A stretch of 62,996 nt of DNA, filler included, from Basidiobolus ranarum (Eukaryota): NCBI GenBank assembly GCA_040143965.1. It is 26 parts of 26 records of this genome, joined end to end, with 100 filler letters (N's around TTAATTAATTAA, not from the genome) between each part and the next. Parts side by side here need not be neighbours in the genome. Positions count along the whole stretch, not along the records: positions 9,743 to 12,075 come from JASJQH010010338.1; 25 more parts are not named here. The stretch is one strand, 5' to 3'. Below are positions 2,439 to 58,159 of the stretch, one piece after another. A model generated the notes under the pieces. It was not told where the DNA came from and did not search any database. It was given only the letters and a program-made list of their open reading frames with translations. Both the position numbers and the translations under genes were made by a program. Numbering within the stretch: the first letter of the stretch is position 1; each line of letters opens with the position of its first letter.

Positions 2439-3525
2439 AGGCCAATAGTTGCACAAAGCCAGGAGAATATTAACAGCAATAAGTGCACAGAACTGACTTT
2501 AGTTTTGCTCACCAAATCCACTGGCTGTGCTTAGCCTCAAAGTTGTGGTAACACTGCTAAAAGTCAAAATTCCATGAAGTAACCACAGTTATGTGACCAT
2601 AATGATGTAGGTAGAAATGCAACTTTGGTCAAACCAGTAAGTCCAGACAACTTAGTGGACATGCTGCTTGATATTGACCTTGGTTATTCCAGTACCAATG
2701 GTAGTATATCCAAAGTTGAAGAAGATGATGATGGTTTTGTTGCAAACTCTTTGTTATTGGCAAGCATTAGTCTACTCCTAACAATTACAGTAGAGGAAGC
2801 ACATTTGCTTATTGAGGAGTGGAGAGTTCAATCCAATCTTACAACCAGGTGTTTGGTGGTTTTCTTACACTTTTATTACAATTGATTGGCAGCTATTGCT
2901 TGCCACAGACCTGGTACAAGTGGAAAATACTTGTCCATTGTATGACTCAGAATCCTTCAGTAATTGAACCACCTTCATGTCCAAAAGGTTGTTTGGCTTT
3001 CACCAGTGATCTGAAAAACCTGAAGTCATGTACTGTTTGTACACAATTGGCAATTACTGAATCAGGTAAATACCATTCATATTTTGCTTAGATACTGTAA
3101 ATTTTGCATCTTAAAGCTTTGATGAAATCACCCAAATGTAGTTTATTGATCCAATACCAAAGTACTCACCATAAAGCTGGTGGTATTACCAATATACTTG
3201 ATGGATGCCACTACAAGAATCTGAAATGTCAAGGTTTCTTTGAGAACACATATAATCATGCATTTGCATTGGCTATGTATGGTTTCTCACCAAACCAATA
3301 TACCATTGGAAAGGCTAGCAGTCCAACAATTTTAATTAACTTAAATCTTCCTCCTTCTGAATGGTATAAGAGTCATAATACTTTCATACTATCCATCATA
3401 TGTGGACCTAAATCACAAGTGCTGATTGATAGCTTCTTGGAGCCTTTGATTGTGGAATTTGATTGGTTTTCTAATGGAGTTCAGATGGGTGAAAATTTAT
3501 TAAAGCTAATATTGTTGTATTTATA
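2439..3525 (+). mobile_element. CMC/EnSpm (CACTA-like) Tnp2 transposase, N-terminal half, decayed
   Basis: CPxGC..CTVC motif, ILDG.HY..L..QGFF, LINLNLPP.E, GPKS..LIDSFLEPL, typical of Transposase_21/Tnp2. Confidence 0.9.
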
Positions 3526-4774: not shown

Positions 4775-4874
4775 NNNNNNNNNNNNNNNNNNNNNNNNNN
4801 NNNNNNNNNNNNNNNNNNTTAATTAATTAANNNNNNNNNNNNNNNNNNNNNNNNNNNNNNNNNNNNNNNNNNNN

Positions 4875-7492: not shown

Positions 7493-7977
7493 TTTGAATG
7501 AAGTGATTTATTACGTTTCACTGGCACCTCTTTTTATATTCATCAGAGAGGTTTTCAAGTACCTATATCTGGATCGCCTTTCTGGATATACTCTCACCTA
7601 TTATAGTGATATACTTAATAGTGACATTGACTTGATACTGGAAAATCCGCATTTAGACAGACACCTGCACACGAAGGTAAACATGTCTTTTTGATCATTA
7701 CATCGTTACTTGATTCGAATCTGGATCGTTCTCGCCTATCAACTCAGCAATCTCAATCACGAACAATGCCGAAGTAATCTTGGAACAGCCAAACAATTAA
7801 TTCCAACTCAACATTGATTAATTATTTTTGATCAATATTCTTGATTAATAAAAATAATAAAACTCAGCAAAATTTTTCAATTCTCATAAGATTTTTCATC
7901 CATGACTGATAAAATATTCGATTCATGTGCATTAGTGCTTTTCCCTATAACAGTCCACTATTTTCCACTTCTAGACT

Positions 7978-8865
7978 ATGTTTTTACTACGCTTGAATAG
8001 ACTTCAGCCTACTTTGGGTGTACAGTTACCAAGATCCTTATTGTCGAAATGCAAGTTCTCCACTTCCATCAAACCTTTACAATTTCAGCATACGAAGATT
8101 TTGCAACAACTGAAAGAAGTCAATGCCTTGCAAAACGCTGAACCTGCTCCAGCCAAGTTCACACCACTAAAGCAGGAACCTGCCCCCATTCCTGTCAAGA
8201 AGCATTTAGCACTAAAAAAAGTATATCTCAAACCTTGTTATGGCACAGGAAGACTAGGTGATACTGAGGTATACGTGTTGAAAGATCCATTTGAGGTGGA
8301 TTCTGGTATTAAGCACTTGTTGAGTAGCATCAAGCTGGAAAAAGGCCATGAGTTGAAGTGTGTCGGTTTCGATACGGAAACTACCGTCAAGTTCCACCAA
8401 CCCCGTCAAAAAGTTTCCACCATTCAACTTGGAAACGACGATGTTTGCTTGATTATTCAAATATCTAGAATGCTTAGAAAAGGACATCCATTCCCCATGT
8501 CCTTGAAAGAAATATTACAAAACCCTGATATCCTTAAGGTGGGAGTGGCTGCTACCGGAGATGGAAAACATCTACAAGAATCTTATGGAGTTGAGACGAA
8601 TGGCATCGTAGATCTTGAAAACATTGCCAAGAAGCTTAACGAAGATGGATTATCGCTAGCAAAATTGGCATCGAAATATGCGGATGGATTAGAATTAGTA
8701 AAGAACAAGAAGAAGATGTTACGTTGGAGGTGGGAGGAGACTCTTGATCACGAGCGTATCATGTATGCTGCACAAGATGCTGTATCTGGCTACCGAATTT
8801 ACAAAAACTTACTCATCAAGCAGAAGGAAGTGAAAAATTCTACAACTTCTTGTAATACCCAATAG
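7978..8865 (+). CDS. DEDDy 3'-5' exonuclease, WRN-exo/EXD2-like, with putative mitochondrial presequence (295 aa, intronless)
   Basis: ExoI VGFDTE, VSTIQL, L.NPDILKVGV..ExoII D, ExoIII YAAQDA; N-terminus rich in R/L/S with no acidic residues for about 45 aa. Confidence 0.92.
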   Translation: MFLLRLNRLQPTLGVQLPRSLLSKCKFSTSIKPLQFQHTKILQQLKEVNALQNAEPAPAKFTPLKQEPAPIPVKKHLALKKVYLKPCYGTGRLGDTEVYVLKDPFEVDSGIKHLLSSIKLEKGHELKCVGFDTETTVKFHQPRQKVSTIQLGNDDVCLIIQISRMLRKGHPFPMSLKEILQNPDILKVGVAATGDGKHLQESYGVETNGIVDLENIAKKLNEDGLSLAKLASKYADGLELVKNKKKMLRWRWEETLDHERIMYAAQDAVSGYRIYKNLLIKQKEVKNSTTSCNTQ

Positions 8866-9122: not shown

Positions 9123-9642
9123 TGTTGAAATCAGCATTGCCTAAGCACCTATATAGTCATATATAGCTTAGTATTTAGTTATCCTATATTGAACTAAGAT
9201 ATCACCCATTATTCTCATGAGGAATTGTTTAAATTAGCATTGCATAAACATCTATATAGTCATATATGGCTTAGTACTTAGTTATCTTATACTTCACTAA
9301 GATATTACCCATTATTCTCATGAGGAATTTACTTGGAATATTTTTACCAACTGAGAAGATATAGATATATAGTTTTTCAAACTTGTGCTAGAAGCCCAAA
9401 ACCTTGCACATATGTTCCTGGGCCCTTCCTGAACATATTTTCAACATTAGTTTGTTTACATCTTGACAAAAGTATAAATGTCAACTTTCTACTCAGTAAA
9501 TCAATAAGTGAAAACCACCAATTTCTCTAATTCTCTAAACCACTTCTAATAGGCTCCTAAATACTTTAACAACTTATGAGCCCTAAGCTTGCACTCTCTG
9601 TAATGTTTACTTCTCAAATTTCTGGAACTTCTCCCTCCTCTC
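9123..9642 (+). mobile_element. LTR-A nested in LTR-A (9123-9225; 9226-9571), PBS and gag start
   Basis: Second TGTT.AAATTAGC at 9226 ending TTTAACA at 9571; PBS (AC)TTATGAGCCC at 9572-9583; leader matches the one before gag at 34620. Confidence 0.88.
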
Positions 9643-10383
9643 NNNNNNNNNNNNNNNNNNNNNNNNNNNNNNNNNNNNNNNNNNNNTTAATTAATTAANN
9701 NNNNNNNNNNNNNNNNNNNNNNNNNNNNNNNNNNNNNNNNNNCTGAATTATCTCAGAACTTTTGGATCAATAATATATGCTTATATTCCTAAACCTCAGC
9801 ATAGGAAATAGGACAAAAAGGCAATTAAATGTATCCTATTAGGATAACAGAACAAAGGCTACTATCTCCTAATTGCTGGCACAAATTAAATCATCAACTC
9901 CAGAGACACTATATTAATTGAAGTAAATCTCAAATAGTTTAACCAAGGGAATTTGATTTTGGCTGAAAATCAATTTCTCAATAACTCAAATTCTGAGTCA
10001 ACAAGTTCTGAAACCAATCTTGAGCTAATGAGTATTGAAAACAACTTAGAAAATAATACATTGGAAATAGATACTAGAATTAGGCCAAATATGTAATCTG
10101 AAACTATCTATCAACATTGTCCAAATTTAGGAAATATCACATCTGGAAAAGGTCCAAAACATCAGCCACTGATGAATATATGACAAAGCTCAAATCATTA
10201 CAAATCCCTGTGATGATTATTCCTAGCAGAAAAACAAGAAGCAATAATCCTGTCTCAAACTGTACTACAAGCACTGAAACCAAACAGAACAAACTACTAA
10301 ATGATATTCTGGAATTAAGTAGCTATACAAGTGCTAAACATTAGGCAGCACTGGAAATGTACCAATTCATACCAGAAAACCTG

Positions 10384-10516
10384 TATATATGTTAGTTTGT
10401 TTACATCTTGACAAAACTATAAAGGTCAACTTTCTACTCAATAAATCAGTAAGTGAAAACCACCAACTCCACTAATTCTGCAAACCACTTCCAACAGGCT
10501 TACAAATACTTTAACA
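10384..10516 (+). repeat. 3' (R/U5) part of copia LTR-A
   Basis: Matches the last ~130 bp of LTR-A and ends TTTAACA. Confidence 0.9.
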
Positions 10517-10567
10517 GGTTATGAGCCCTGGTTAGTGCTAAATCCGGAAATCCTGCTTGAGGAGAAA
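10517..10567 (+). promoter_or_regulatory. 51-bp TRIM internal region: PBS GGTTATGAGCCC and PPT GAGGAGAAA
   Basis: PBS of the copia half-tRNAiMet type directly after an LTR end; purine tract directly before the next TG. Confidence 0.8.
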
Positions 10568-10849
10568 TGTTGAAAGTCTGGTGACTTGTGGTACAAGCAG
10601 TAATTCCCAAAGAGGAAAATATGGAGTATGGTGACTGCATCTGAATACAAAGTCTAAGGCCAATCAGTTGCTTATATAGCTGCAATGCCAAAGTACCATA
10701 CATTATCACACTAGGTTAAGGTTCCCTAGCAATATAGGCATAGTATACAATGACTGGTAGCTCACTGGTTAGAACACCTTGCTAGAGTGAAGGAGGTCCC
10801 AGGTTCAAATCCTGGCCAGACCAATATTTCTCCCTAAATAATTTCAATA
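10568..10849 (+). mobile_element. tRNA-containing LTR (282 bp, TGTTGAAA...TTTCAATA), TRIM/Helenus-like
   Basis: Inverted termini (one C>T change); second independent copy at 16756-16939. Confidence 0.85.
10751..10823 (+). tRNA. tRNA-derived sequence inside an LTR (73 nt; anticodon loop CT-AGA-GT, short variable arm; isotype uncertain, probably not a functional tRNA)
   Basis: Acceptor TGACTGG/CCAGACC, D arm GCTC-ACTGGTTA-GAAC, anticodon stem CCTTG/GAAGG, variable AGGTC, T arm CCAGG-TTCAAAT-CCTGG; A box TAGCTCACTGG and B box GGTTCAAATCC. Confidence 0.85.
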
Positions 10850-12517
10850 ATCTCTGCCAATGAAAAATATGGTAATCAGAAAAAGGATATTTTTCCAGCC
10901 AATCAGATATCAGGAAATTGGGCTCAGAAATAAGGCAATAATATTCTGAACAATCACAGACCTAAGAAATATCCTACTTTCAATTTGGCTGATATTGGAT
11001 GCAACCAATTGTTGGAAGTATGCAATCAATCACAGAGTTCTGGCAATCAGGTCAAAGAAATCCTACTGAGTGGAAATCAGGAACATCCTGTAAGTCAAAC
11101 ATCTGATCATTCTACCAAGGACTTTGTATATCTCAAATCAAAGCATGAAATCAATGGTTTCAATTCAGAAAAAGGGTGGAATATTATTGCACATATAGCC
11201 TTTTCTGAAACAGAAAATTGGACAAAAGCTCTGAAATCTTATGAAGCAACAGAATGGAGAAAAGCCACTGTTGATGAAATTCACTCCCTAATCAAGAATA
11301 ACACATAGATTCTTGTGGATGTACCTACTGGAAGAAAAATATTGGTAATAGATGGGTGCTGAAACTGAAACTTAACTTGGATGGATCTATCAACTGGTAC
11401 AAAGCAAGATTAGTAGTAAAAGGCTATGCTCAGAAACATGGCTTTGACTATAATGAAACATTTTCTCCCATTGCTAAGTTTACCTCAATCAGAGTAATCC
11501 TAGCCATTGCTACCTGCCAAGGGTTGATGATTGAACAAATGGATCTCAAGATAGCATTTCTTAATGTAGAAATTGATGAAGATATATACTTGGATCAACC
11601 AGAGAGATATATTGCAAAAGGAAAAGAGCATCAAGTATGCAAATTACAGAGAAGTCTATATGGTTTGAAACAACCTCCTTGTGCATGGAATACTAAAATC
11701 AATCAGATCTTCATGAAACATCTTTTCCATTATAGCAAAGCTGATCACTGCATATACTTCAAGACTATCAATGCCACCAAAGTGATAATTGCTTTCTATG
11801 TTGATGATATCATAATAGCTAGTAATTGCCCAAATCTGGTGAAACAAACTAAGACCTGGCTATCTACCAAGTTTGAAATGCAAGATCTTGGATCACTAGC
11901 ATGTTTTCTTGGAATGCAGATGCATTAAAATTCCACTATTGGAACACTCTGTATTACACAAGATAAATATATTGGAGATGTTTTAAACAGATTCAATATG
12001 TCAGAATGTAAAACAGCTTCAAATCCACTACGTATGCTGAAACTCACTAAGAATATGGAACCAAAGACCTCTGAANNNNNNNNNNNNNNNNNNNNNNNNN
12101 NNNNNNNNNNNNNNNNNNNTTAATTAATTAANNNNNNNNNNNNNNNNNNNNNNNNNNNNNNNNNNNNNNNNNNNNACAACCAAACTGCAAACTAGACTGG
12201 ACAAGCCAACACATACCACAGCATATCAACCTCAAGCCACAACTCATGCCTGCCAAGGTAGAGGAACTTCAGCAGGATCAAACCAACCAACTCAGTGCAG
12301 AGTTTCAAGCAAAGTTCCTTCCATGGAAATATCAAGGAGACAACAAAAATAACAGAAGCAAATCAGCATGTACCACTTCAAACCTGGGCAACTGCTGACT
12401 GCTCTTGTTAATACTTAAATTATCTGATCTTTACTGCTTAGTGCATCATGCAAATTCAATATGGTTTGCAGCTTAATATAGCATAAATTGCTTTAGTTGG
12501 ATCATGATTGCTTACGT

Positions 12518-16755: not shown

Positions 16756-16939
16756 TGTTGAAAGTCTGGTGACTTGTGGTACAAGCAGTAATTCCCAAAG
16801 AGGAAAATGTGGAGTATGGTGACTGCTTCTGAATGCAAAGTCTAAGGCCAATCAGTTGCTTGCATAGCTGAAATGCCAAAGTACCATACATTGATGGACT
16901 AGGTTAAGGTTCCCTAGCAATATAGGCATAGCATACAAG
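16756..16939 (+). mobile_element. Second copy of the tRNA-containing LTR (5' 184 bp), inserted in copia gag
   Basis: Highly similar to 10568-10751; the contig ends on the first tRNA base (G, which restores the acceptor pair). Confidence 0.88.
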
Positions 16940-17503: not shown

Positions 17504-19369
17504 TTGCCTCAAAGTTTTGGTCATACTGCCAAAAGTCAAGATACCATGGAGTTATCACAGTTATATGACCAGAATCATGTAGGTCAAAATGCAACTTTGG
17601 TCAAACCAGTAAGTCAAGAGAACTTTAAGGACTTGCTGCTAGATATTGACTTTGGTTACTCCAGTACCAATGGTAGTATATCAGAAGTTGAAGAAGAAGA
17701 CAACCATTTTGTTATGGACTCTTTGTTATCAGCAAACATTAATCCACTCATAACACTTACAGTACAGGAAGCAGCTATGATTATTGAGGAGTGGAGAGTT
17801 CAATCTAATCTTAGCAACCAGGTCTTTATTGGTTTTCTCACACTTATACCACAATTGATTGGCAACTGTTGCTTGCCATGGACTTGGTACAGGTGGAAAA
17901 TACTTGTCAATTGTATGACTTATAATCCTTCAGTAATTAAACTGCCTTAATGTTCAAATGGTTGTTTGGCTTTCACCGTTGATCTGAAAACTTGAAGTCA
18001 TGAACTGTTTGCACACAATTGGCAATCACTGAATCAGGTAACTATTGTTCATATTTGCTTACATACCATTGATTCCCTGCCTTAGAGTTTTGATGAAATC
18101 ACCCAAATACAGAGATTGTTCCAATACCAAAGTACTCACCGTAAAGCTGATGGCATCATGGATATAGTTGATGGATATCACTACCAGAATCTGATTAGTC
18201 AAGGTTTCTTTGAGAACATGTATAATCATGCATTTGCATTGGCTCTGGATAGTTTCTCAGTATACAAATATACCATTGGAATGGCTTGCTGGCCAATAAT
18301 TTTAATCAACTTAAACCTTCCTCCTTCTGAACAGTCTACAAGTCATAATATCTTGACACTATCCATCTTATCTGGACCTAAATCACTAGTGCTTATAGAT
18401 AGCTTCTTGGAGCCTTTGATTGCAAAATTTGAATAGTTATCTAATGGGGTTCAGATAGGTGAGTATCTTATTAAAGCTAATATCATTGTATGTATTGGTG
18501 ACACTCCTGCGATGAGTAAACTTGGAGGTTTCATGGGCACAATGCACTATCTTGCTGTAGATTTTATCAAATTAATGGAGTTTACTCTAACAGACATATG
18601 CATTGCTACTATCCAAATACAACACTAAACTTCATGATTTTACCATCAAGAGCCTGGCCAGATTTCAACATGATCACTGATATTGATTCACCAAATAGTC
18701 AGCAGTACATCAAGCTTGGTATTAGCTGTAAGCCTAAGATTATATTCCTAAGGGGATTAGCTGGAGCCAGAGCTTCCCATTAGGCACTATGCACTTACTA
18801 TTCAACAACATTCCAATACTACTTACTAAGCTATATAGTGGAATATTCAATATGAATGAGCCATTTGAGATAGGATCAAAGTGTGAATTCATTGGGAAAA
18901 TGTTTGAAAACAGCAAGATACCATCACATTTTACCAAGACTCCCATCAATATCCACTCAGCAAGGCGTTTATTCAAATGCAAAGACTGGAAGTATTGGAT
19001 TTGTATATATTCCTGCAGAATTGTGAAATGATTCCTGCCTGATAAGTATTTGCAACATTGGGAGTTGTTTGTGGATATTGTTAATATATTCTTACAGCAT
19101 CAACTCTCATTGGCAGATCTAAGGCAGATACAGCAACTGTGCAAAGATTTTGTAATTGGATATGAAAAACTTTATTACAGGTTTAAGGAAGATAGACTGA
19201 ATCTCTGCCAGTATTCAATACATTCCCTGCTGCATCTTTCACAATGCTTAGCGATTATAGGCCCTTGCTATACATTCTGGGAGTTCCCAATGGAGCACAC
19301 CTGTGGTGAAATGATGCTTCATGTGAAATTGTCAGTATTACCATATGCTAATCTGATTAACAATGTATC
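17504..19369 (+). mobile_element. CMC/EnSpm Tnp2 transposase core, decayed
   Basis: ALALDSFS, WPIILINLNLPP, GDTPA.SKLGGF, KCKDWKYW, YEKLYYRFKEDRLNLCQYSIHSLLHL, FWEFPME. Confidence 0.93.
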
Positions 19370-19469: not shown

Positions 19470-21340
19470 AAGATTCCGCACAGTTTCCAAAATGTTAAAC
19501 CACTCATCATCAGAGCAAGTGACAGCAGCTCTGACATTCAGAGTCTTTTGGTTTGCCAGTTTTCCTATGAGATTTCTACTCACATGTGTTCTAATAATTT
19601 TGGGTTGTAGTGTATGCTTAAAGGTCTGACATATATTCTACTCTGCTCGATTGCCATGGTGACATTTGTATGTATTTTGAAGGACTAATTGAAGTCCCAT
19701 ATGAGAATGGACAGAGGGAGCCACATTTTGCTATAGCTCAAGTACAGCATTCTGAAGGTCTTGTATCATTGTCAAGAGACTCTCTAATTGTTACTAGTTA
19801 CTTCAGAATGATGCATTAATTGCACTATTGTGGCATTATAGCTTGTCATGGCCTGTATAGCAACTTTTCTGCCTCAGAGTTTGGGTAACACTGCCAAAAG
19901 TCAAGGTACCATCAAGTTACCACAGTTATATGGCCAAATTCATATAGGTAGAAATGCAAATTTGGTCAAATCAATAAGTCCAGACAACTTTGAGGACTTG
20001 CTGCTAGATGTTGATCTTGGTTGTTCCAATACCAATGGTAGTATATCAGAAGTTGAAGGAGAAGATGATGGTTTTATTACACACTCTGTGTTATTGGCAA
20101 GCATTAGTCCACTCGAAACACTTACAGTCAAGGAAGCAGCTTTTATTATTGAGGAGTGGAGTTTTCAATCCAATCTTAGCAACCAAGTGTTTATTGCTTT
20201 TCTTACATGCTTACCACAGCTGATTGGCAACTGTTGCTTGCCACAGACCTGGTACAAGTGGAAAACACTTGTCAATCATATGAGTTATAATCCTTCAGTA
20301 ATTAAACTACCTCATGTCCAAATGGTTATTTGGCTTTCACCAGTGATCTGGAAAACCTGAAGTCATGTACTGTTTGCACACAATTGGCAATCACTGAATC
20401 AGGTAAATAGCATTCATATTTGGCTTACATACCATTAATTCCCCATCTTCAAGTTTTGATGAAATCACCCAAAAATAGATCATTGCTCCAATACCAAAGT
20501 ATTCCTTGTAAAGCTGATGGTATTACCAATATACTTGATGGATATCACTACCAGAATCTAAAAAGTCAAGGTTTCTGTGAGAACCTGTACAATCATGCAA
20601 TTGCATTGGCTCTGCATGGTATCTGGCTAAACAAATATTCCATTGGAAAGGCTTGCTGGCCAATAATTTTAATTAACTTAGATTATCCTCCTTCTGAATG
20701 GTATAAGATTTGTAATATTTTGATACTATCCATCATATCTGCACCTAAATCACCAGTGCTAATAGATAGCTTCTGGGGGCCTGTGATTGCCAAATCTAAA
20801 TGGTTATCTAATGGGGTTCAGATGGGTAAATATTTTATTAAAGCAAATATCATTGTATGTATTAGTGACACTCCTTCCATCAGTAAACTTGGAGGTTTTT
20901 GCAGGCATAATGCACTATCTTGCTGTAGAATCTGTCAAATCAATGGAATCTACTCAATCAGGTATATGCATTACTACTATTCAGATATTAAACTAAACTC
21001 CATGAATTTACCATCAAGAGCCCTAACCAATTGCAATATGATCACTGATATTAATTCACCAAATAGTCAGTCTAACATCAAACTTGGTTTTAGCCATAAG
21101 CCTAAGATCTTAGAGCTAAATGGGATCAGCTGGAGCCAGAGCTTCCCATTAGGCACTATGCACTTACTATTCAACAACAATCCAATACTACTTACTCCTC
21201 TATATAGGGGAAAACTCCATGTGAATGAGCCATTTGAGATAGGAGCAAAGTTTGAATCATTTAGGAAAATGCTTGGCAAAATTCAAGTGGAATCTTGAAG
21301 AGATTTCTGCCTGATAAGTATTGGCAAAATTGGGAGTTGT
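19470..21340 (+). mobile_element. CMC internal-deletion derivative (ORF2 piece on minus strand joined to transposase)
   Basis: 19470-19865 is the reverse complement of about 42710-43100; it joins the transposase directly, lacking ~840 bp present at 41870-42710. Confidence 0.85.
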
Positions 21341-21897: not shown

Positions 21898-22259
21898 TCA
21901 GTGCCAACGAGCTACTCATCAACTCTACGCAGCGCAACATACTCTCCAATGTAGCACCTATGGATGGAGACTTCGTTGTTCAAAAGCGGAGATTTGACGC
22001 TATGTTTCAATCTACATTGCCACTTCTTTTGCGTGCAAACCTGATTGACACAGTAGTTCTATCTGGAGCATACACTTCCGGGGTTATTCTTGCTACAATG
22101 CGAACTTGCAGCGATATGGACTACCAGATCTATATTATTCGAGAGAATGTCATCGATCCAAGCTACTCCCTCAGTCAAACACTTCTTGATGTTTTCTTTC
22201 CCCAGCAAGCGAGTGTGATTAGCTTGGAGACTGCTTTACGGGCATTACCAAAGAACTAA
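21898..22259 (+). CDS. Isochorismatase-family (cysteine hydrolase fold) protein, 3' fragment, TSGV subtype
   Basis: VAP.DGDFVVQKRRFDAMF.S.L..LLRA..IDTVVLSG..TSGVILAT.R...D.DY....I.E...DP; frame open from the contig start. Confidence 0.9.
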
Positions 22260-26751: not shown

Positions 26752-29078
26752 AAGAGGTTCCAGAGTTCTCGTTGACGATTGCCACATCATTTAACTTCTG
26801 GAGACCTTCGCCTACCAACGTACCGGATTTAGTAGGGGCCGGTATATTGATTGCTTCATTCACCGTGCCATCTCTATCATAGACTAACCTGGTTTCTCAG
26901 TAAACTATATTAGCATAACTCCAAATCTAGAATCCGATGCAGATACCAAGGTGAAGTTTGTTACAAGCAGTAGCGAGCTAAAAAGAAACCTGGAACAAAT
27001 TCGAGCACTCGGTGTACCTCGTGAAAAACTTTTAATGGGACTTTTGTTCTTTGGCATGTAAGTGGCTGCTTTGGATGATTTTTGCAATTTTACTCTATTC
27101 GATACTTACTGAAACCTATCCGTGGGTGAATCTTGGCAGGCCCTATAAGCTAGCAGATCCTAACTGTCACTGGGCTGTCTGTGCAGTGACAAGTGGTGAA
27201 TCTCAAAGTATGTGTGTTGAGAATTCAAGAATTTGGCCATATTATGAGGTTCGAGATCTATTTGGATATAGTGCTCCTGTTGGTGTCGAAAGAGAAGTCT
27301 TTAACCCAGACGCGCTCAGTACTATCATTACCCATGGCGAATCCAAGACGGACATTGTTGTCTATGATGACATAGAATCGATCAAAGCCAAAGCGAACCT
27401 CGCTAAAGAAATATGTCTTGGTGGTGTAAGTGTATGGAGTATTGATCAAGATGGCGATTCTGGTGATTTGTTCGGTGCGATTAATGAAATTGTGACTAAG
27501 ATCCCAAACCCGGATCAATTGATTCAAGGTGATATTCATTGCATTGTGTATAGATCGTAGAGCTACCTATTAATTTTGCCACGGTTATTCTATATAGATT
27601 TGATGGTGGCTTTAAACAGAGATGGAACTGTTCCAGATAATTTTTGGGATGTCATCGCGAGTCGAGTATCCCTTCTTGTTGACAATTACTCTCTTTCTCA
27701 AAGCTACGCTTATCAACTACTCTTACTAGCCTCTACCCGAATGTATAACCTTGTCACCGTTCAACTAGAGAAATTGTTAAGTCAAGGTGACCTTAGCGCA
27801 GACAAATTTGCCATTTATAAGAAATGGACGACTATTTCGGTTAATCGACAACTTCACCAACTTATGATCGGGGATGGAAGACAATTTTGGTCTTGTAAGA
27901 TCAATCAAAGTAGTGACTCTTCTCCTGACAAGTGTCCCACATCCTACCTGAGTCCGGTAGGTGTTTATGAAGTGACATGGGATTTGATAAACCGAGAGGG
28001 TTTCGAGAGTCTATTAGTCGAGAGGCTTCAAATCTCTCTGAATGATTTAGAAATGAGTACAGCTTATTATCCAATCATAGGTATGTGAAAGAGAATCCCT
28101 CAATCTTGTCATTATTACTCATTCGTTAGTGTAGGTGGTTGTCGCGATCCTGGCCTTGCTGCTGCTCTAATTTCTCCTAATACAAGCGCACCTCATGTGG
28201 CAATGAAGACAAGAGCTAAATATAGAACTTCTAAGGGACCAAGAATCAAGAAGTTTGGTAAACGATCCATGGAAGATCCTTTTGTCTCGGATCCATTTTG
28301 CGAGCTGGATACTCATTGGTATTTATTCTTTTGAAATTATTCACTTAAAAACTCGAGTTTGAAATGGGTTTTGACATCCACTTTAATGCCTTTTCATATT
28401 GTAGGAATGGCATGCTTAGAGCCAAGGACTCGTTTTTCGAGAATCCTGAACCATCTATACAGGAATATATCCAAACCGCTCAACTTGAAATCATGCGATT
28501 GGAGACTGTAGGTCTTTCCAAGGAAGCTTCCTTGTTGGAAGTCATGACCAATTTAGAAGAGGTATTGGTTACAATCACTTCCGGATCCCATATCTTAGTC
28601 CAAACCTATGGCTATATTGCAGCTCTAGATGAGGCGTTAGAAGCAGAAAGACAACAACTAGCAGCTCGAAACACAGTGGAGAGTATTCTACTTGAACTTG
28701 GGTTAACACTTATCGGGTTTGCTATTGGCCCTGTAGCTGGTTTAGTTGGAAGAGGGATCATGACGATCAGTCGCACTGTGGGAAATGTTTTAAAGACCGC
28801 ACGGGCCGCTAGAGGAGGAAAAGCTATCCAAGATGCGGCTAAACTTGAACAAACTGTAGTAAATGGATTTACCTCTATCAACAAAATTAAAGAGGCTGTA
28901 GGCTCGTTGCGCTCCATGATGACTCCATGTAAGTGAATATTCACTAGTTTCATTCTGGCAGATGTTAACTTTCGTTTTATCAGGATGCAATGGGACTCCA
29001 ACTGGTGGCTCATTATTGGTACCTACACCGGTTTGATTGGATTTATAGATGGTTTTGTATTGAGAAATGTTTACTTCC
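26752..29078 (+). CDS. GH18 chitinase-like protein, subgroup C (killer-toxin alpha type) with long C-terminal region; internal fragment with introns
   Basis: GVPREKLLMGLLFFG, Y.L.DPNC...C, YDD.ES.KAKA..A...CLGGVSVWSIDQD; GT-AG introns 26842-26900, 27058-27139, 27529-27597, 28081-28134 and 28319-28404 keep the frame; later W.G....NP motif and hydrophobic LLELGLTLIGFAIGPVAG. Confidence 0.88.
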
Positions 29079-34030: not shown

Positions 34031-35908
34031 TCCATATTGAACTAAGATTTCACTCATTATTCTAAAGAGGAATTTATTTGATATATTTTTACCAACTTAG
34101 AGGTTCTCATATGTATAGATCTTGAGAGCTAGTCCTAAAAGTTCCAAACTTTGCACACATACTCCTGGGACATTAATTAACACATTCTACCCCTTTGTTT
34201 ACTTATTTCTTGACAAAACTAAACATATCAACTTCCTATTCAATAAGTCAATAAGTAAATACCACCAATTCCTCTGTTTCTGCAACCAATATCTGTGGAA
34301 ATTAGCATTGTCTAGACACCTATATGGTGATATATAGCTTAGTATTTAGTCATCTATATTCCACTAAGATATCAGCTATTATTCTCAATCAGTATCTACT
34401 TAAAAGTACTCAGAAATAGAGATTTGCAAACTTGTTCTAGAAGCCCCAAACTTTGCTCAAATGTTTCTGGATTTTCTTTAACATATTCTACATATTAGTT
34501 TGCTTTTATCTTGATAAAACAATTAATGTTAATGTTATATTCTATAAATGAAAAAGTCAAAGCCACCTATTTCTCTAATTCTTCAAAACACTTCCACAAA
34601 GTCCCAAAATACTTCAACAAGTTACAAGCCACAAGCTTGCACTCCCTATAATATCCAATTCTCAAAATTTGTGAACTTTTCTCTCTTTGGCAGAATTGAA
34701 CGGAACCAATTCTCATATTTATAAAACAAAAATGAAAATACTACTGCAAGAAAAACAACTTTGGGACACTGTTGTAGGAGAAGGAAACAATATAAAACTA
34801 TCCAAAATCAAAGCTTTACTTCATATTAAAAAAGAACAAAGTGCCTTCAACACAATTTGTCTTCATGTTAAACATAAATTGCTAATTCAATGTCCAAGAG
34901 CCAAAACTTTCAAGAAGATCTGGAAAGCCTTGGAACATATCTACTCTACATGTCCTGCTACCAACAAGATGTTTTTATGAAGATAATTGATCAACTTACA
35001 AATAAATGCAGGAGAAGGCATTAGACCACTAACTAATACTTTCACTATTTAGGGGGATGCAACACAATGCATTTGTGTACCTACTAATGATCACAATATC
35101 AAAGTCACAGTCCTGAATAGCCTGCCAGACAAACTCCAGAGCCTAGTAAAGGCTCTAGAATCTACAACAGAAGCTTGAACCTATATTATAAATATAGCCA
35201 ATCTCTGGAGGAAGATTTATGTAAAGAAGCATGCAACTAAAAGAATGAAGTCAATGCTTTAATAGGTTATGCAAAGCTGTCCCATAAAGATCAAAGGCAC
35301 CTTGCAAAGAGAAGTAACCTATTCTGCAATTACTGTAAAAGAACTGGCTATTCAATCAGAGATGGCTTAAATAAAAAGCAAAAGAAGAAAAGCAAAACAA
35401 ATCTAGAAAGATAGTTATAGCAATTTTTCACTTGCCTGTACCTGCCCTATCTACTACTACCAACAGCAATGGTTTTCATCGGAGATAAATGTAAAATGAA
35501 TGCTATTGGAATGAGAACAATTTAAGTCAATCAAACTGGTGTTTTTGAAGAGAGAGTGTATACTATTAATGACATACTCTATGTTCCAGATATTGCCATG
35601 AACTTAATATCTGTATACCAAGATACTATGCAAGGACTAATATTCAAATTTGATAGGTCAGATGTATCATCACTCATCAAATGGTAATATATAAGCTTTG
35701 GGACAAAGGGATCAGAATATATACAAACTTGCATATATTTCAAGTGGTTTATATATAAATATAAATTGCTCCATTCAAGAAACTATTCACTTATGGGATG
35801 TGAGATTTGGCCATATTGGATTTACTTATTTGTGCCAGATGATTGAAAATTGCCTAATTTCTGCAATTCAGATTATCTCCATACCCAAAATGTAAGTTTG
35901 TGGGGGTT
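34031..35908 (+). mobile_element. Copia-A 5' end: nested LTRs (34031-34293; 34294-34619), degenerate PBS, gag-protease-pre-integrase
   Basis: LNGTN..IYKTKMKILLQEKQLWD (gag), CNYCKRTG, LWD.RFGHIG. Confidence 0.92.
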
Positions 35909-48576: not shown

Positions 48577-49027
48577 AACTAATACTATTCGCATATGGGG
48601 CGATGGAAATACAAAGTTTGATATAACTACATTGGAAGATACTGGTAGATTTACTGCTGAAGCACTGCTAGATCCCAATGTTGGCGAACGATTTGAATGC
48701 CACGGCGAGGAAGTCTCCTTAAACGAGCTGGCAGAGCGTTTGGAGAAGGCTCTAGGAGTTGAATTAAAGCGTGACACGCTCGGTTCTGTTGAGGAGTTAG
48801 AGACCATGCTTGAAAAAAATTTGAGCCAAGATCCAAATGCTCACCTCTCTGAGCAATATATGCTTCCACTTGTATCTGGAGTAGGTAAATTGCAAAATCT
48901 TCAAAATTCAAAGTATCCCAACTTAAAGCCCAAATCTTTGGAGCAATACATCGCAGAATTTAGAAAAGTCAGCCCACATGACATGAAAAACCCTGATTAT
49001 GTTGGCAGAGTAAAATCCAATAACTAA
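48577..49027 (+). CDS. NmrA/isoflavone-reductase-like NAD(P)-binding protein, 3' fragment
   Basis: IWGDGNTKFDITTLEDTGRFTAEALLDP..GEEVSL.ELA..GSVEEL..QY...L.SG.GKL....NSKYP..KP.SLEQY. Confidence 0.88.
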
Positions 49028-55840: not shown

Positions 55841-58159
55841 ACACTCCTGCCATCAGTAAACTTGGAGGTGTTTGTGCGCGCAATGCACAATCTTGCTGTA
55901 GATTTTGTCAAATCAATGGAGTCTACTCAATCAGGCATATGCATTACTACTATCAATATACAAACTAATTTCCATGATTTTACCATCAAGAGCCCAGTCA
56001 GATTTCAACATGATTACTGATAACAATTCACCAGATAGTCAGTCTAACATTAAACTTGGTATTAGCTGTAAGCCTAAGATTATATTGATGAAGGGGATCA
56101 GCTGGGACCAGGGCATCTCATTAGGCACTATGCACTTACTATTCAACAACATTCCAATACTACTCACTCAGCTATAAAGAGGAAAATTGAATGTGAGTGA
56201 GCCATTTGAGATAGGATTAAAGTTTGAATTGATTGGGAAAATGCTTAAAAACATCAAGATATCATCATATTTTACCAGGACTCCCATCATTATCCATTCA
56301 TCCAGGCATTTATTCAAATGCAAAGACTGGAAGTATTGGATATCTATATATTAAAGTGGAATCTTGAATAGATTTCTGCCTGAAGAGTATTGGCAACATT
56401 GGGAGTTGCTTATGGATATTGTTAATATATTCTTATGGCATCAACTCATATGGGCAGATCTCAGGCAGATACAGCAGCTGTGCAAAGATTTTTAAATCAG
56501 ATATGAAAAACTTTGTTATAGGCTTGAAGAAGATAGACTGAATCTATGCTGGTTAAGGAGACTCCAGATTTTATTAACCTTCCAACAAAGGGCTCTTTTC
56601 AATTTGCTCATGGGTTTTCACATTGTTTGAGCACAATAACAGCAATAAAGCCCAATTCATGGACATAGAGAAAGTACCTCTATAATTTGGACTAATTTGT
56701 TTGTTTAATAATCTGATGGTATATCTAGGAAAGCTACAAGACAGACTACTTGGTGAGATAGATGGAGATACACTATTATTGTTTCAGCCAAGGGGTAATC
56801 TATTCAAGGAATGACACATCTACTTGTGGCAGGAGATTTTTTGACTGCAGTTGGGTATATATTTGCTGAATTCTTTATGAAAATTTGCCAAAATCCAAGA
56901 GCTTATTTACACAGTGAACCATAACAAGAGTCATCTATTTGCCAGGTGTCCGTGTTATTCAAAACTTGGATGTTTAGCAATTTTTCCACCATTAGTTTGC
57001 TGGTAAAGCATATTGATGTTGTTGAGTTATGTCTAATCAGTCACGTATGTACATATGTAGAGACTAAACACAACAAGATTTTGGTATTTTTTTATTCTCA
57101 TTATGGCTGGAATACAGAGCTTAAAATATCTAATTACAGGCATGCATATTAATATGAATTCCTACAGCAGTAAACCCTGTGATTTGCCATTTGAAAATTA
57201 AATTTGCAAAAATTGCCAGAAATTAATAATGTGTGCCAAACATGAGGAACAATATTTTAATATGTATTAATACCATTGGAAAACCATCAAGAAACTGCTG
57301 TCACACAATCAAAATCCATGGCAGAATGCAAGCCACTAATATTGTGATGGTTCTCTGATGGTTTTGTAATTTTGAAGGGTGGATGAAAGTGGATCAAATT
57401 GATATTAATTCTGTTATGGCACACACCTGGTTCAAGTGAAAAACACTTGTCAATTGTAAGACTTATAATCCCTCAGTAATTAAGCTACCGTCATGTCCAA
57501 CTGATTGTTTGGCTTTCAATAATGATCTGGAAAACCTGAAGTCATGTACTGTTTGCACACAAATGGCAATCACTGAATTAGGTAACTATTATTCAAATTT
57601 GGCTTACATACCATTGATTCTCCATCTTAAAGTTTTGATGAAATCACCCAACTATAGATCTTTGATCCAGTACCAAAGTACTAACCATAAAGCTGATGGT
57701 ATTACCAATATACTTGATAGATATCACTACCCAAATCTGAAAAGTCAAGGTTTCTTTGAGAACACATATGATCACGCATTTGCATTGGCTCTGGATTGTT
57801 TCTCATTAAAAAAATATATTGTTGGAAAGGCTTTCCGCCCAATAATTTTAATCAACATGAATCTTCCTGCTTCTGAATGTTATAAGAGTCATAATATTTT
57901 GCAACCAACCATCATATTTGGACCTAAATCACCAGTGCTTATAGATAGCTTCTTGGAGCCTTTGACTGCAGAATTTGAATGATTATCTCATGGTGTTTTG
58001 ATGGTGTATATTTTATTAAAGCTAATGTTAGTGCATGTATTGGTACTCTCCTCCCATCAGTAAACTTAGAGGTTTTTGCAGGTACAATGCACTTTCTTGC
58101 GGTAGAATTCATTAAATCAACGCAGTTTACTCTGTCAGGTATATGCATTACTACTATTC
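55841..58159 (+). mobile_element. CMC 3' half ending at the right TIR (57419), followed by transposase core of another copy
   Basis: Tnp2 motifs; TTCTGTTATGG end. Confidence 0.9.

Follow-up and report, generated by a model that had tools for sequence, protein, structure and literature searches.

The described elements closest to the locus reported here are those of the Helenus (TRIMp3) group, which are TRIMs with a tRNA-derived sequence in their LTRs (Kojima 2024, Biology 13:119, PMC10886601). According to the sections of that paper used here, Helenus elements are known from fungi, animals and one plant, and consist of two tRNA-bearing LTRs and a short non-coding internal portion, the whole element being shorter than about 1.3 kb. 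[quoted passage not shown] The pseudo-tRNA calls reported in the same sections include Ser-AGA, and the use of RNA polymerase III (Pol III) is unvalidated in them. The fungal hosts given there are Pucciniales, Agaricus, Coprinopsis and Amylostereum; these sections make no mention of Basidiobolus, Zoopagomycota or Mucoromycota, and the screen was seeded from Repbase (PMC10886601). No publication joining Basidiobolus with copia LTR retrotransposons was found in the literature, and no extension of Helenus/TRIMp3 to the Basidiobolus lineage was found among the matches listed for the literature from 2024 onward.

Three other systems share part of this organization. Cassandra elements of plants have a small-RNA-derived Pol III promoter module in the LTR, a short internal region, a PBS and a polypurine tract (PPT), as does the element described below. 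They differ from it in carrying 5S rRNA in the LTR and conserved terminators (as given in the sections of PMC10886601 used here), both of which are lacking in the present LTR, and in their host, which here is a fungus. The tRNA-derived SINEs (SINE2) are likewise short and non-autonomous, with a tRNA head that includes boxes A and B. Priming of the Ty5 / Drosophila copia type resembles that proposed here in that the PBS matches the anticodon stem-loop and not the tRNA 3' end (as cited in the same sections of PMC10886601); the difference is that here the PBS serves a gene-less internal region of 51 bp.

The window analysed is a stretch of 62,996 nucleotides from Basidiobolus ranarum (GenBank assembly GCA_040143965.1), in which 26 contigs of 2,318-2,338 bp each are joined by N44-TTAATTAATTAA-N44 linkers, about 60.5 kb being real sequence; all positions count along the window. 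Its GC content is 31-38% and repeats are dense throughout. Contig 5 (9743-12075) holds a 279-bp unit, hereafter the C LTR, together with a tRNA-like module, and contig 7 (14609-16939) holds a second copy of that unit. These 26 contigs, one metagenome contig (L001) and Kojima 2024 form the evidence base. As regards other coding sequence in the window, a partial isochorismatase ORF (21900-22256) was 90% identical to a Basidiobolus meristosporus protein, and a partial NmrA-like ORF (48578-49024) matched only two proteins, from B. meristosporus (64% identity) and B. ranarum (60%), its Atlas neighbours being mostly fungal; these two gene fragments point to Basidiobolus or a near relative as the probable host. 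The copia reverse transcriptase (RT) was uninformative for lineage, the best matches being plant fragments at 43-47% identity.

Compared with Helenus as described in those sections of the 2024 paper, the C element is alike in having an LTR-borne tRNA module with conserved boxes A and B that is unconvincing as a tRNA (its isotype and anticodon conflict), a PBS in common with a copia family and a very short internal portion. It differs in its host, an early-diverging Basidiobolus as against the published Pucciniales and three Agaricomycetes, and in that the LTRs of LTR-1_PTrit and Copia-9_PGr are reported as dissimilar, whereas here the LTR tips and the PPT are also shared with the copia family. 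The element is likened to Helenus by described features and agrees with the fungal members in all those that were readable, and on this comparison it is likely a Helenus-type remnant and a new member of that kind of family. The original prediction stated correctly that tRNA-bearing TRIMs have been named Helenus (PMC10886601). It also suggested that the family may be undescribed; the kind has been known since 2024, and what is left of that suggestion is a family at most new for this fungal lineage. Its comparison with Cassandra found no counterpart in the sequence, where 5S rRNA was not matched anywhere in the window at the Rfam gathering threshold or at E-values up to 5.

Organization of the contig 5 insert

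The features on which the description rests are the following, in order of position.

9226-9571, plus strand: B-type LTR of contig 4, followed at 9572-9584 by the same PBS core (..TTATGAGCCCT)
10030-10383, plus strand: left part of the host copia 'A', coding linker upstream of RT; 90% identical to contig 1 positions 1-356
10384-10516, plus strand: 3' part (about 131 bp) of a B-type LTR, ending ..CTTTAACA, first 217 bp or so missing; 5' LTR remnant of the insert
10517-10531, plus strand: primer-binding site GGTTATGAGCCCTGG, directly abutting the LTR end
10532-10555, plus strand: 24-nt spacer between PBS and PPT, to which nhmmer and blastn found nothing similar elsewhere in the window
10556-10567, plus strand: polypurine-tract region CTTGAGGAGAAA, aligning with GTTGAGGGAGAG upstream of the 3' B-type LTRs of contigs 10 and 16
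10568-10846, plus strand: C LTR, 279 bp, TG..CA, with the tRNA-like module; acts as 3' LTR of the insert
10751-10823, plus strand: tRNA-like module with anticodon AGA and a short variable loop (ARAGORN, Rfam)
10758-10768, plus strand: box A region, TAGCTCACTGG; TAGCT..CTGG fits TRGCY..YGG
10802-10812, plus strand: box B region, GGTTCAAATCC; GGTTC at 10802-10806
10847-12075, plus strand: right part of the host copia 'A', 90% identical to contig 1 positions 410-1657; RT ORF at 11302-11928
16756-16939, plus strand: second C LTR copy, 5' 183 bp plus one base, ending at the contig end
34294-34619, plus strand: B-type LTR of contig 15, delimited by LTR alignment and followed by a degenerate PBS
34675-34980, plus strand: copia gag ORF of contig 15 (Retrotran_gag_2, E 5.1e-9); 34294-34980 is the putative helper reference

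Positions 10384-10846 are best explained as a 463-bp remnant of a small, non-autonomous, Helenus-type LTR retroelement lying in the coding region of a copia; taken as a whole, with mobilisation in trans and a Pol III promoter included, this explanation is considered probable by a slight degree. The host sequence is well defined by contig 1, an intact paralog of the host copia in which an open frame at contig positions 2-1015 runs into an RVT_2 reverse transcriptase; the RT ORF of the host copia itself (11302-11928) matches RVT_2 with an E-value of 1.4e-60. Relative to contig 1, the 463 bp of contig 5 replace 53 coding bases.

The C unit begins at 10568 (TGTTGAAAG), directly after the purine tract, and ends at 10846 (..ATTTCA); from 10847 onward the host copia is again homologous to contig 1. 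The original prediction had described an LTR of 282 bp with ends TG..(C>T)A, with the tRNA-like part ending 26 bp from its 3' end: the LTR itself is upheld, its length is corrected to 279 bp with canonical TG..CA ends that need no C>T change, and the distance to the 3' end is 23 bp.

Both tips of the C LTR resemble those of the B-type LTR. Its first 8 nt, TGTTGAAA, are identical to the B LTR start; the PPT with the LTR start (..TTGAGGAGAAA|TGTTGAAA) matches that of the B family (..TTGAGGGAGAG|TGTTGAAA), and the final 24 nt (..CTCCCTAAATAATTTCA) can be aligned to the 3' terminus of the B LTR (..CTCCCAAATACTTTAACA). Among random 24-mers of the window (n=20,000), 0.03% scored as well for the PPT with LTR start and 0.125% for the 3' end. 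Between the bodies of the two LTRs the similarity was not significant (global score z 1.8). The C LTR lineage can be linked to the B-type copia because the LTR tips, the polypurine tract and the anticodon-loop primer site are shared. The interpretation that 10568-10846 behaves as the LTR of an LTR retroelement is supported, because its 5' start is shared by copies in two contigs, the paralogs have empty sites, a PPT lies upstream and its ends are B-like. A composite LTR, in which the 279-bp unit would be one half and the 131-bp B piece the other in an RNA-shaped permuted copy, was rejected because the 3' end of the 279-bp unit is an LTR terminus in its own right.

The B family has a full LTR length of about 348 bp and nine copies in the window, the contig 5 remnant included. 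Over 10386-10516, that remnant is 79-91% identical to the eight other copies (84-91% to six, 79-82% to two), and all copies end at the same base, beyond which the flanks are unrelated. Contigs 10 and 16 share about 880 bp of internal sequence, which together with a PPT precedes the B LTR, and B LTRs flank copia gag and pol sequence; by this arrangement the B family is assigned as the LTR of an autonomous copia.

The internal region of the insert (10517-10567) measures 51 bp and starts GGTTATGAGCCC(TGG). Its PBS stands just 3' of the 5' LTR end (..TTTAACA) and its PPT just 5' of the 3' LTR, the two motifs being intact and 24 nt apart; the 24-nt spacer is unlike the leader found 3' of the PBS in contigs 4 and 15. 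A 51-bp internal region bounded by PBS and PPT was thus correctly predicted. The PBS core is common to the B LTR of contig 4 and 10517-10531 over 11-13 nt. Read on the other strand, the PBS presents CAT as an anticodon within seven bases that resemble a loop and are closed by G-C pairs, and 10517-10531 is what we take to be the complement of the anticodon stem-loop of initiator tRNA-Met, a 3'-truncated primer type; we infer that the site targets the anticodon stem-loop of tRNA-iMet.

The structure as a whole departs from the predicted one. A complete TRIM of the form LTR-51 bp-LTR had been expected, and on the left the place of a C LTR is taken by the 3'-terminal ~131 bp of a B-type LTR. The 51-bp stretch is the only internal region in the window, with the tRNA-bearing LTR on its 3' side and the truncated B-type LTR on its 5' side, and no LTR-51 bp-LTR unit with two tRNA-bearing LTRs occurs within the window. 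Reverse transcription yields identical LTRs; the contig 5 copy is therefore not the plain product of one retrotransposition, because its two LTRs differ in type. It is a dead, rearranged and apparently hybrid remnant, and its 51-bp internal region may be a one-off product of deletion or recombination and not the structure of the family.

The simplest history for these features would begin with recombination across the shared interior bounded by PBS and PPT, which would join a 5' LTR of B type and a 3' LTR of C type in one element; alternatively, the hybrid may have arisen by intermolecular plus-strand transfer between co-packaged genomes. The element would have been copied and integrated in trans by the proteins of the B-type copia, a dependence to which the shared PBS, PPT and LTR tips point; from the same features the resident B-type copia appears a plausible helper of the C element, as had been proposed. 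A later single deletion of about 275 bp would have taken away the left copy of the target site together with 53 bp of host sequence and some 217 bp from the start of the 5' LTR. No target-site duplication is readable in either copy, the left flank in contig 5 having been lost with the 53-bp host deletion and the contig 7 copy being cut by the contig end.

The second copy, 16756-16938, is 93.4% identical to 10568-10750 over 183 bp and has the same starting base. Its host there is a copia on the minus strand, with Pol_BBD and rve ORFs, and the insertion falls within the gag region; in contig 15 the corresponding position is about 165 bp past a Retrotran_gag_2 ORF. The insert of contig 7 is missing from two paralogous copia copies, in contigs 15 and 17, whose sequence is continuous at that point; from this empty site in two paralogs it follows that the left end of the C unit is a true insertion boundary. 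The two copies in 60.5 kb occur at unrelated sites, and searches of the whole window by nhmmer and by blastn (word size 7) returned only these two C copies and no further internal regions. No ribozyme family was matched in the window (Rfam), the hammerhead in LTRs by which retrozymes are recognised included.

The tRNA-like module

ARAGORN called a tRNA-Ser with anticodon AGA at 10751-10823 on the plus strand, its only tRNA match in the whole window. The same 73 nt matched Rfam RF00005 over the full model (1-71) with 37.2 bits against a gathering score of 29 and an E-value of 0.00033, the latter referring to the whole window on both strands; a sensitive Rfam scan of the whole window revealed no further decayed tRNA-like modules. 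A 23-nt core of the module occurs once in the window at up to 3 mismatches, and none of 100 shuffles matched. The module starts 184 nt inside the C LTR, and its end lies 23 bp before the LTR end. Its box A and box B fit the Helenus patterns TRGCY..YGG and GGTTC (motifs taken from the sections of Kojima 2024 used here).

A complete cloverleaf had been claimed for this segment. The tRNA-shaped 73-mer and its boxes A and B are borne out by ARAGORN and Rfam; the complete cloverleaf is not, the Rfam fit having four non-standard pairs, of which the acceptor stem holds two and the D and anticodon stems one each. The minimum-free-energy fold of the module is not a cloverleaf, and its stability is no better than that of shuffles (z -0.19). 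The cloverleaf of 10751-10823 is accordingly a homology fit, and by its sequence the module reads as a decayed tRNA. Its place 184 nt inside an LTR-tipped unit, after a PPT and near a PBS, with no LINE-type or A-rich tail, led to rejection of an identity as SINE2.

The module would act as an internal Pol III promoter and not as a tRNA, a role that would agree with the state of its parts: boxes A and B are kept while the tRNA fold decays, which fits selection on the promoter boxes and not on tRNA structure, the metagenome relative described below being a single, post hoc case.

Competing accounts of the C unit

The account that survives best next to the Helenus-type remnant holds that the C unit belongs to a normal Pol II LTR family, that of an autonomous or large non-autonomous element of a copia lineage, in which a captured tRNA pseudogene is carried as a passenger with no promoter role, the 51-bp region being a one-off product of internal deletion or recombination and not a propagating TRIM; it is regarded as unlikely, though worth serious weight. 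The unlike LTRs, the truncated 5' LTR and the 53-bp host deletion are clear signs of rearrangement and agree with it, as does the single internal region in the window, and the sections of PMC10886601 used here state that 'not a few' Repbase LTRs hold tRNA-like pieces, only some of them being TRIMs. The distribution of T-runs bears on this account in both directions. No terminator lies within the C LTR, as a passenger would allow; against it, the sense strand of 10517-10846 has no run of four or more T. Such a lack in the 330 bp of internal region and LTR is found in 9.7% of 1,924 equal-sized segments, and in a virtual transcript of 426 nt, also devoid of T4 runs, it is matched by 5.0% of 1,404 segments; full B LTRs taken for comparison (n=3) have 1-3 T4 runs each. 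The first T-run of at least four is 67 nt downstream of the module, and the first T5 stands at 10890 in the flank, 44 bp beyond the LTR end. This depletion of T4 runs points weakly to Pol III transcription. The intact PBS and PPT, 24 nt apart, also speak against a mere passenger, and so does the retention of boxes A and B despite decay of the cloverleaf, which is more pronounced in the metagenome relative.

That relative, L001, is a soil-type metagenome contig of 1,220 bp found with the 23-nt core and is the sole metagenome match; the core had no matches in prokaryote genome contigs and none in viral contigs, and a 30-nt pattern from the LTR body had none in the metagenome scan. Its module is 85.7% identical to that of the window over 49 nt (E 5e-10), the AGA loop included. 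It has lost its variable loop as well as the T stem's 5' half, both boxes are kept, and ARAGORN finds no tRNA in L001. The module lies within a unit of 182 bp (333-514) that starts TGTTGGAG, ends in CA and has ATTAC on either side. In L001, 29 matches of 5-base flanks were counted in 15,540 position pairs against about 15 by chance, one of which meets the TG..CA/TA constraint. Positions 333-514 thus fit a candidate solo LTR that belongs to a related family and comes from another organism, the duplication being weak when taken alone.

Under a second account the tRNA-like piece is a one-off insertion, of a SINE or a tRNA retro-copy, into the contig 5 copy, the family itself having no module; this is held to be improbable. 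It is favoured by contig 7, whose last letter falls on the first base of the expected module, as would fit a branch in the assembly graph. The original prediction had cited this copy as an independent second one in copia gag; copy and gag site are confirmed, and because the contig ends at the module start it neither shows nor excludes the tRNA module and is uninformative on the tRNA. The coincidence could be a hint that copies continue differently there, or it could be plain repeat-induced fragmentation. In the sections of PMC10886601 used here, insertion of a SINE into an LTR is itself proposed as the origin of Helenus families, which also suits a one-off event. Opposed to it are the absence of a flanking duplication, SINE body or A-rich tail at 10751-10823, the remaining 23 nt being the LTR terminus, and the related module in the L001 unit, which has a similar 5' tip. 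The G at 16939 would pair with acceptor-stem position 72, where contig 5 is mismatched, a very weak point of one base.

Contig 5 might, thirdly, be an assembly chimera formed via short shared repeats, so that the order of B LTR, PBS, PPT and C LTR would not be genomic. The assembly is highly fragmented (26 contigs of about 2.3 kb) and rich in repeats, and the unlike LTRs are odd; against this, the sequences outside the insert on either side belong to one copia copy and, measured on contig 1, are separated by only 53 bp, and the shared PBS core of 11-13 nt is too short to mislead most assemblers, which makes a chimera very improbable.

Serine tRNAs have a long variable arm. That 10751-10823 is a working tRNA-Ser(AGA) gene placed in a repeat by chance can be dismissed as having a negligible chance of being right, despite the call by both ARAGORN and Rfam, in view of the low score (37.2 bits), the four non-standard stem pairs, the short variable loop, a free-energy fold that is not a cloverleaf and the lack of a T-run within 66 nt downstream. 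As the original prediction held, the segment is not a working tRNA-Ser: it combines a short variable arm with four non-standard stem pairs and is not followed by a terminator; it was rejected as a functional gene for want of a long variable arm, fully paired stems and a downstream T-run terminator.

Possible significance for early-diverging fungi

With the Helenus-type remnant as the preferred reading of 10384-10846, a broader proposal may be made tentatively: that Basidiobolus and its relatives, early-diverging fungi remote from the Pucciniales and Agaricomycetes with known Helenus, have a TRIM lineage of Helenus type with a Pol III promoter, its module being conserved across at least two organisms despite decay of the tRNA fold, and that contig 5 is a natural hybrid of helper and parasite which records strand transfer or recombination between their co-packaged genomes and identifies the helper directly. 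This is regarded as possible, though less likely than not. The present evidence comes from a fragmented assembly and consists of a single rearranged copy plus a half copy. Elements of this kind inflate tRNA gene predictions, here by a false tRNA-Ser(AGA). The putative helper copia can be named from common LTR tips, PPT and PBS, a link that is rarely available for TRIMs. Confirmation across the genome would place tRNA-promoter TRIMs on a deep fungal branch as well, and it would support either repeated independent births of such elements or an origin older than has been proposed.

Composition of the window

The 26 contigs that make up the window are sorted by length, longest first (from 2,338 down to 2,318 bp), and are glued together by linkers of the form N44-TTAATTAATTAA-N44 (2339-2438, 4775-4874 and so on). 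The spacing between features of different contigs is meaningless.

A recurrent breakpoint in the copia gag region

One point in the copia gag region, at 16713 in contig 7, was found as a breakpoint in contig 17 (41033) and contig 19 (45600). This point lies 44 bp away from the insertion of the C LTR, whose copy in contig 5 carries the tRNA-like module. At the breakpoint in contig 17 the end of a B LTR, the LTR family of the resident copia, coincides with this point, and at that in contig 19 the homology changes to a different repeat family. The shared breakpoint may represent an insertion hot spot of this copia family. Regarding the B LTR, a tandem duplication of its first approximately 104 bp was observed in contig 4 (9123-9226 and 9226-9329), with an identity of 85.6% to the reference copy.

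Other repeats, open frames and host-gene fragments

Coding features are listed below; the two adjacent open frames at 27036-28088 may correspond to a host-gene fragment or to a pseudogene. The isochorismatase and NmrA-like fragments, both from host genes, jointly indicate a fungus similar to Basidiobolus.

Coding features in the window
20411-21298, 57440-57982, 3101-3523 and 18086-18433: multi-copy family encoding a Transposase_21 protein (tnp2, CACTA/EnSpm-like); repeat families D1, D9, D10 and D12, three to four copies with identities of 84-87%
7975-8865: open frame of 296 aa with a match to DNA_pol_A_exo1, the 3'-5' exonuclease domain (E = 2.6e-20)
21900-22256: isochorismatase fragment, 90% identity to a Basidiobolus meristosporus protein
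48578-49024: NmrA-like fragment, 64% and 60% identity to Basidiobolus proteins
27036-28088: two adjacent open frames in the same reading frame, separated by a stop; the first with a weak match to glycosyl hydrolase 18 (chitinase; E = 3.2e-7)

A related module in a metagenome contig

A tRNA-like module related to that of the C LTR, and more decayed, is present at positions 398-457 of the metagenome contig L001. The module sits inside a TG..CA unit (333-514), which begins with TGTTGGAG and is flanked by ATTAC. This unit is a candidate solo LTR of the Helenus type, i.e., of the TRIMs with tRNA-derived sequence in their LTRs, from another organism.
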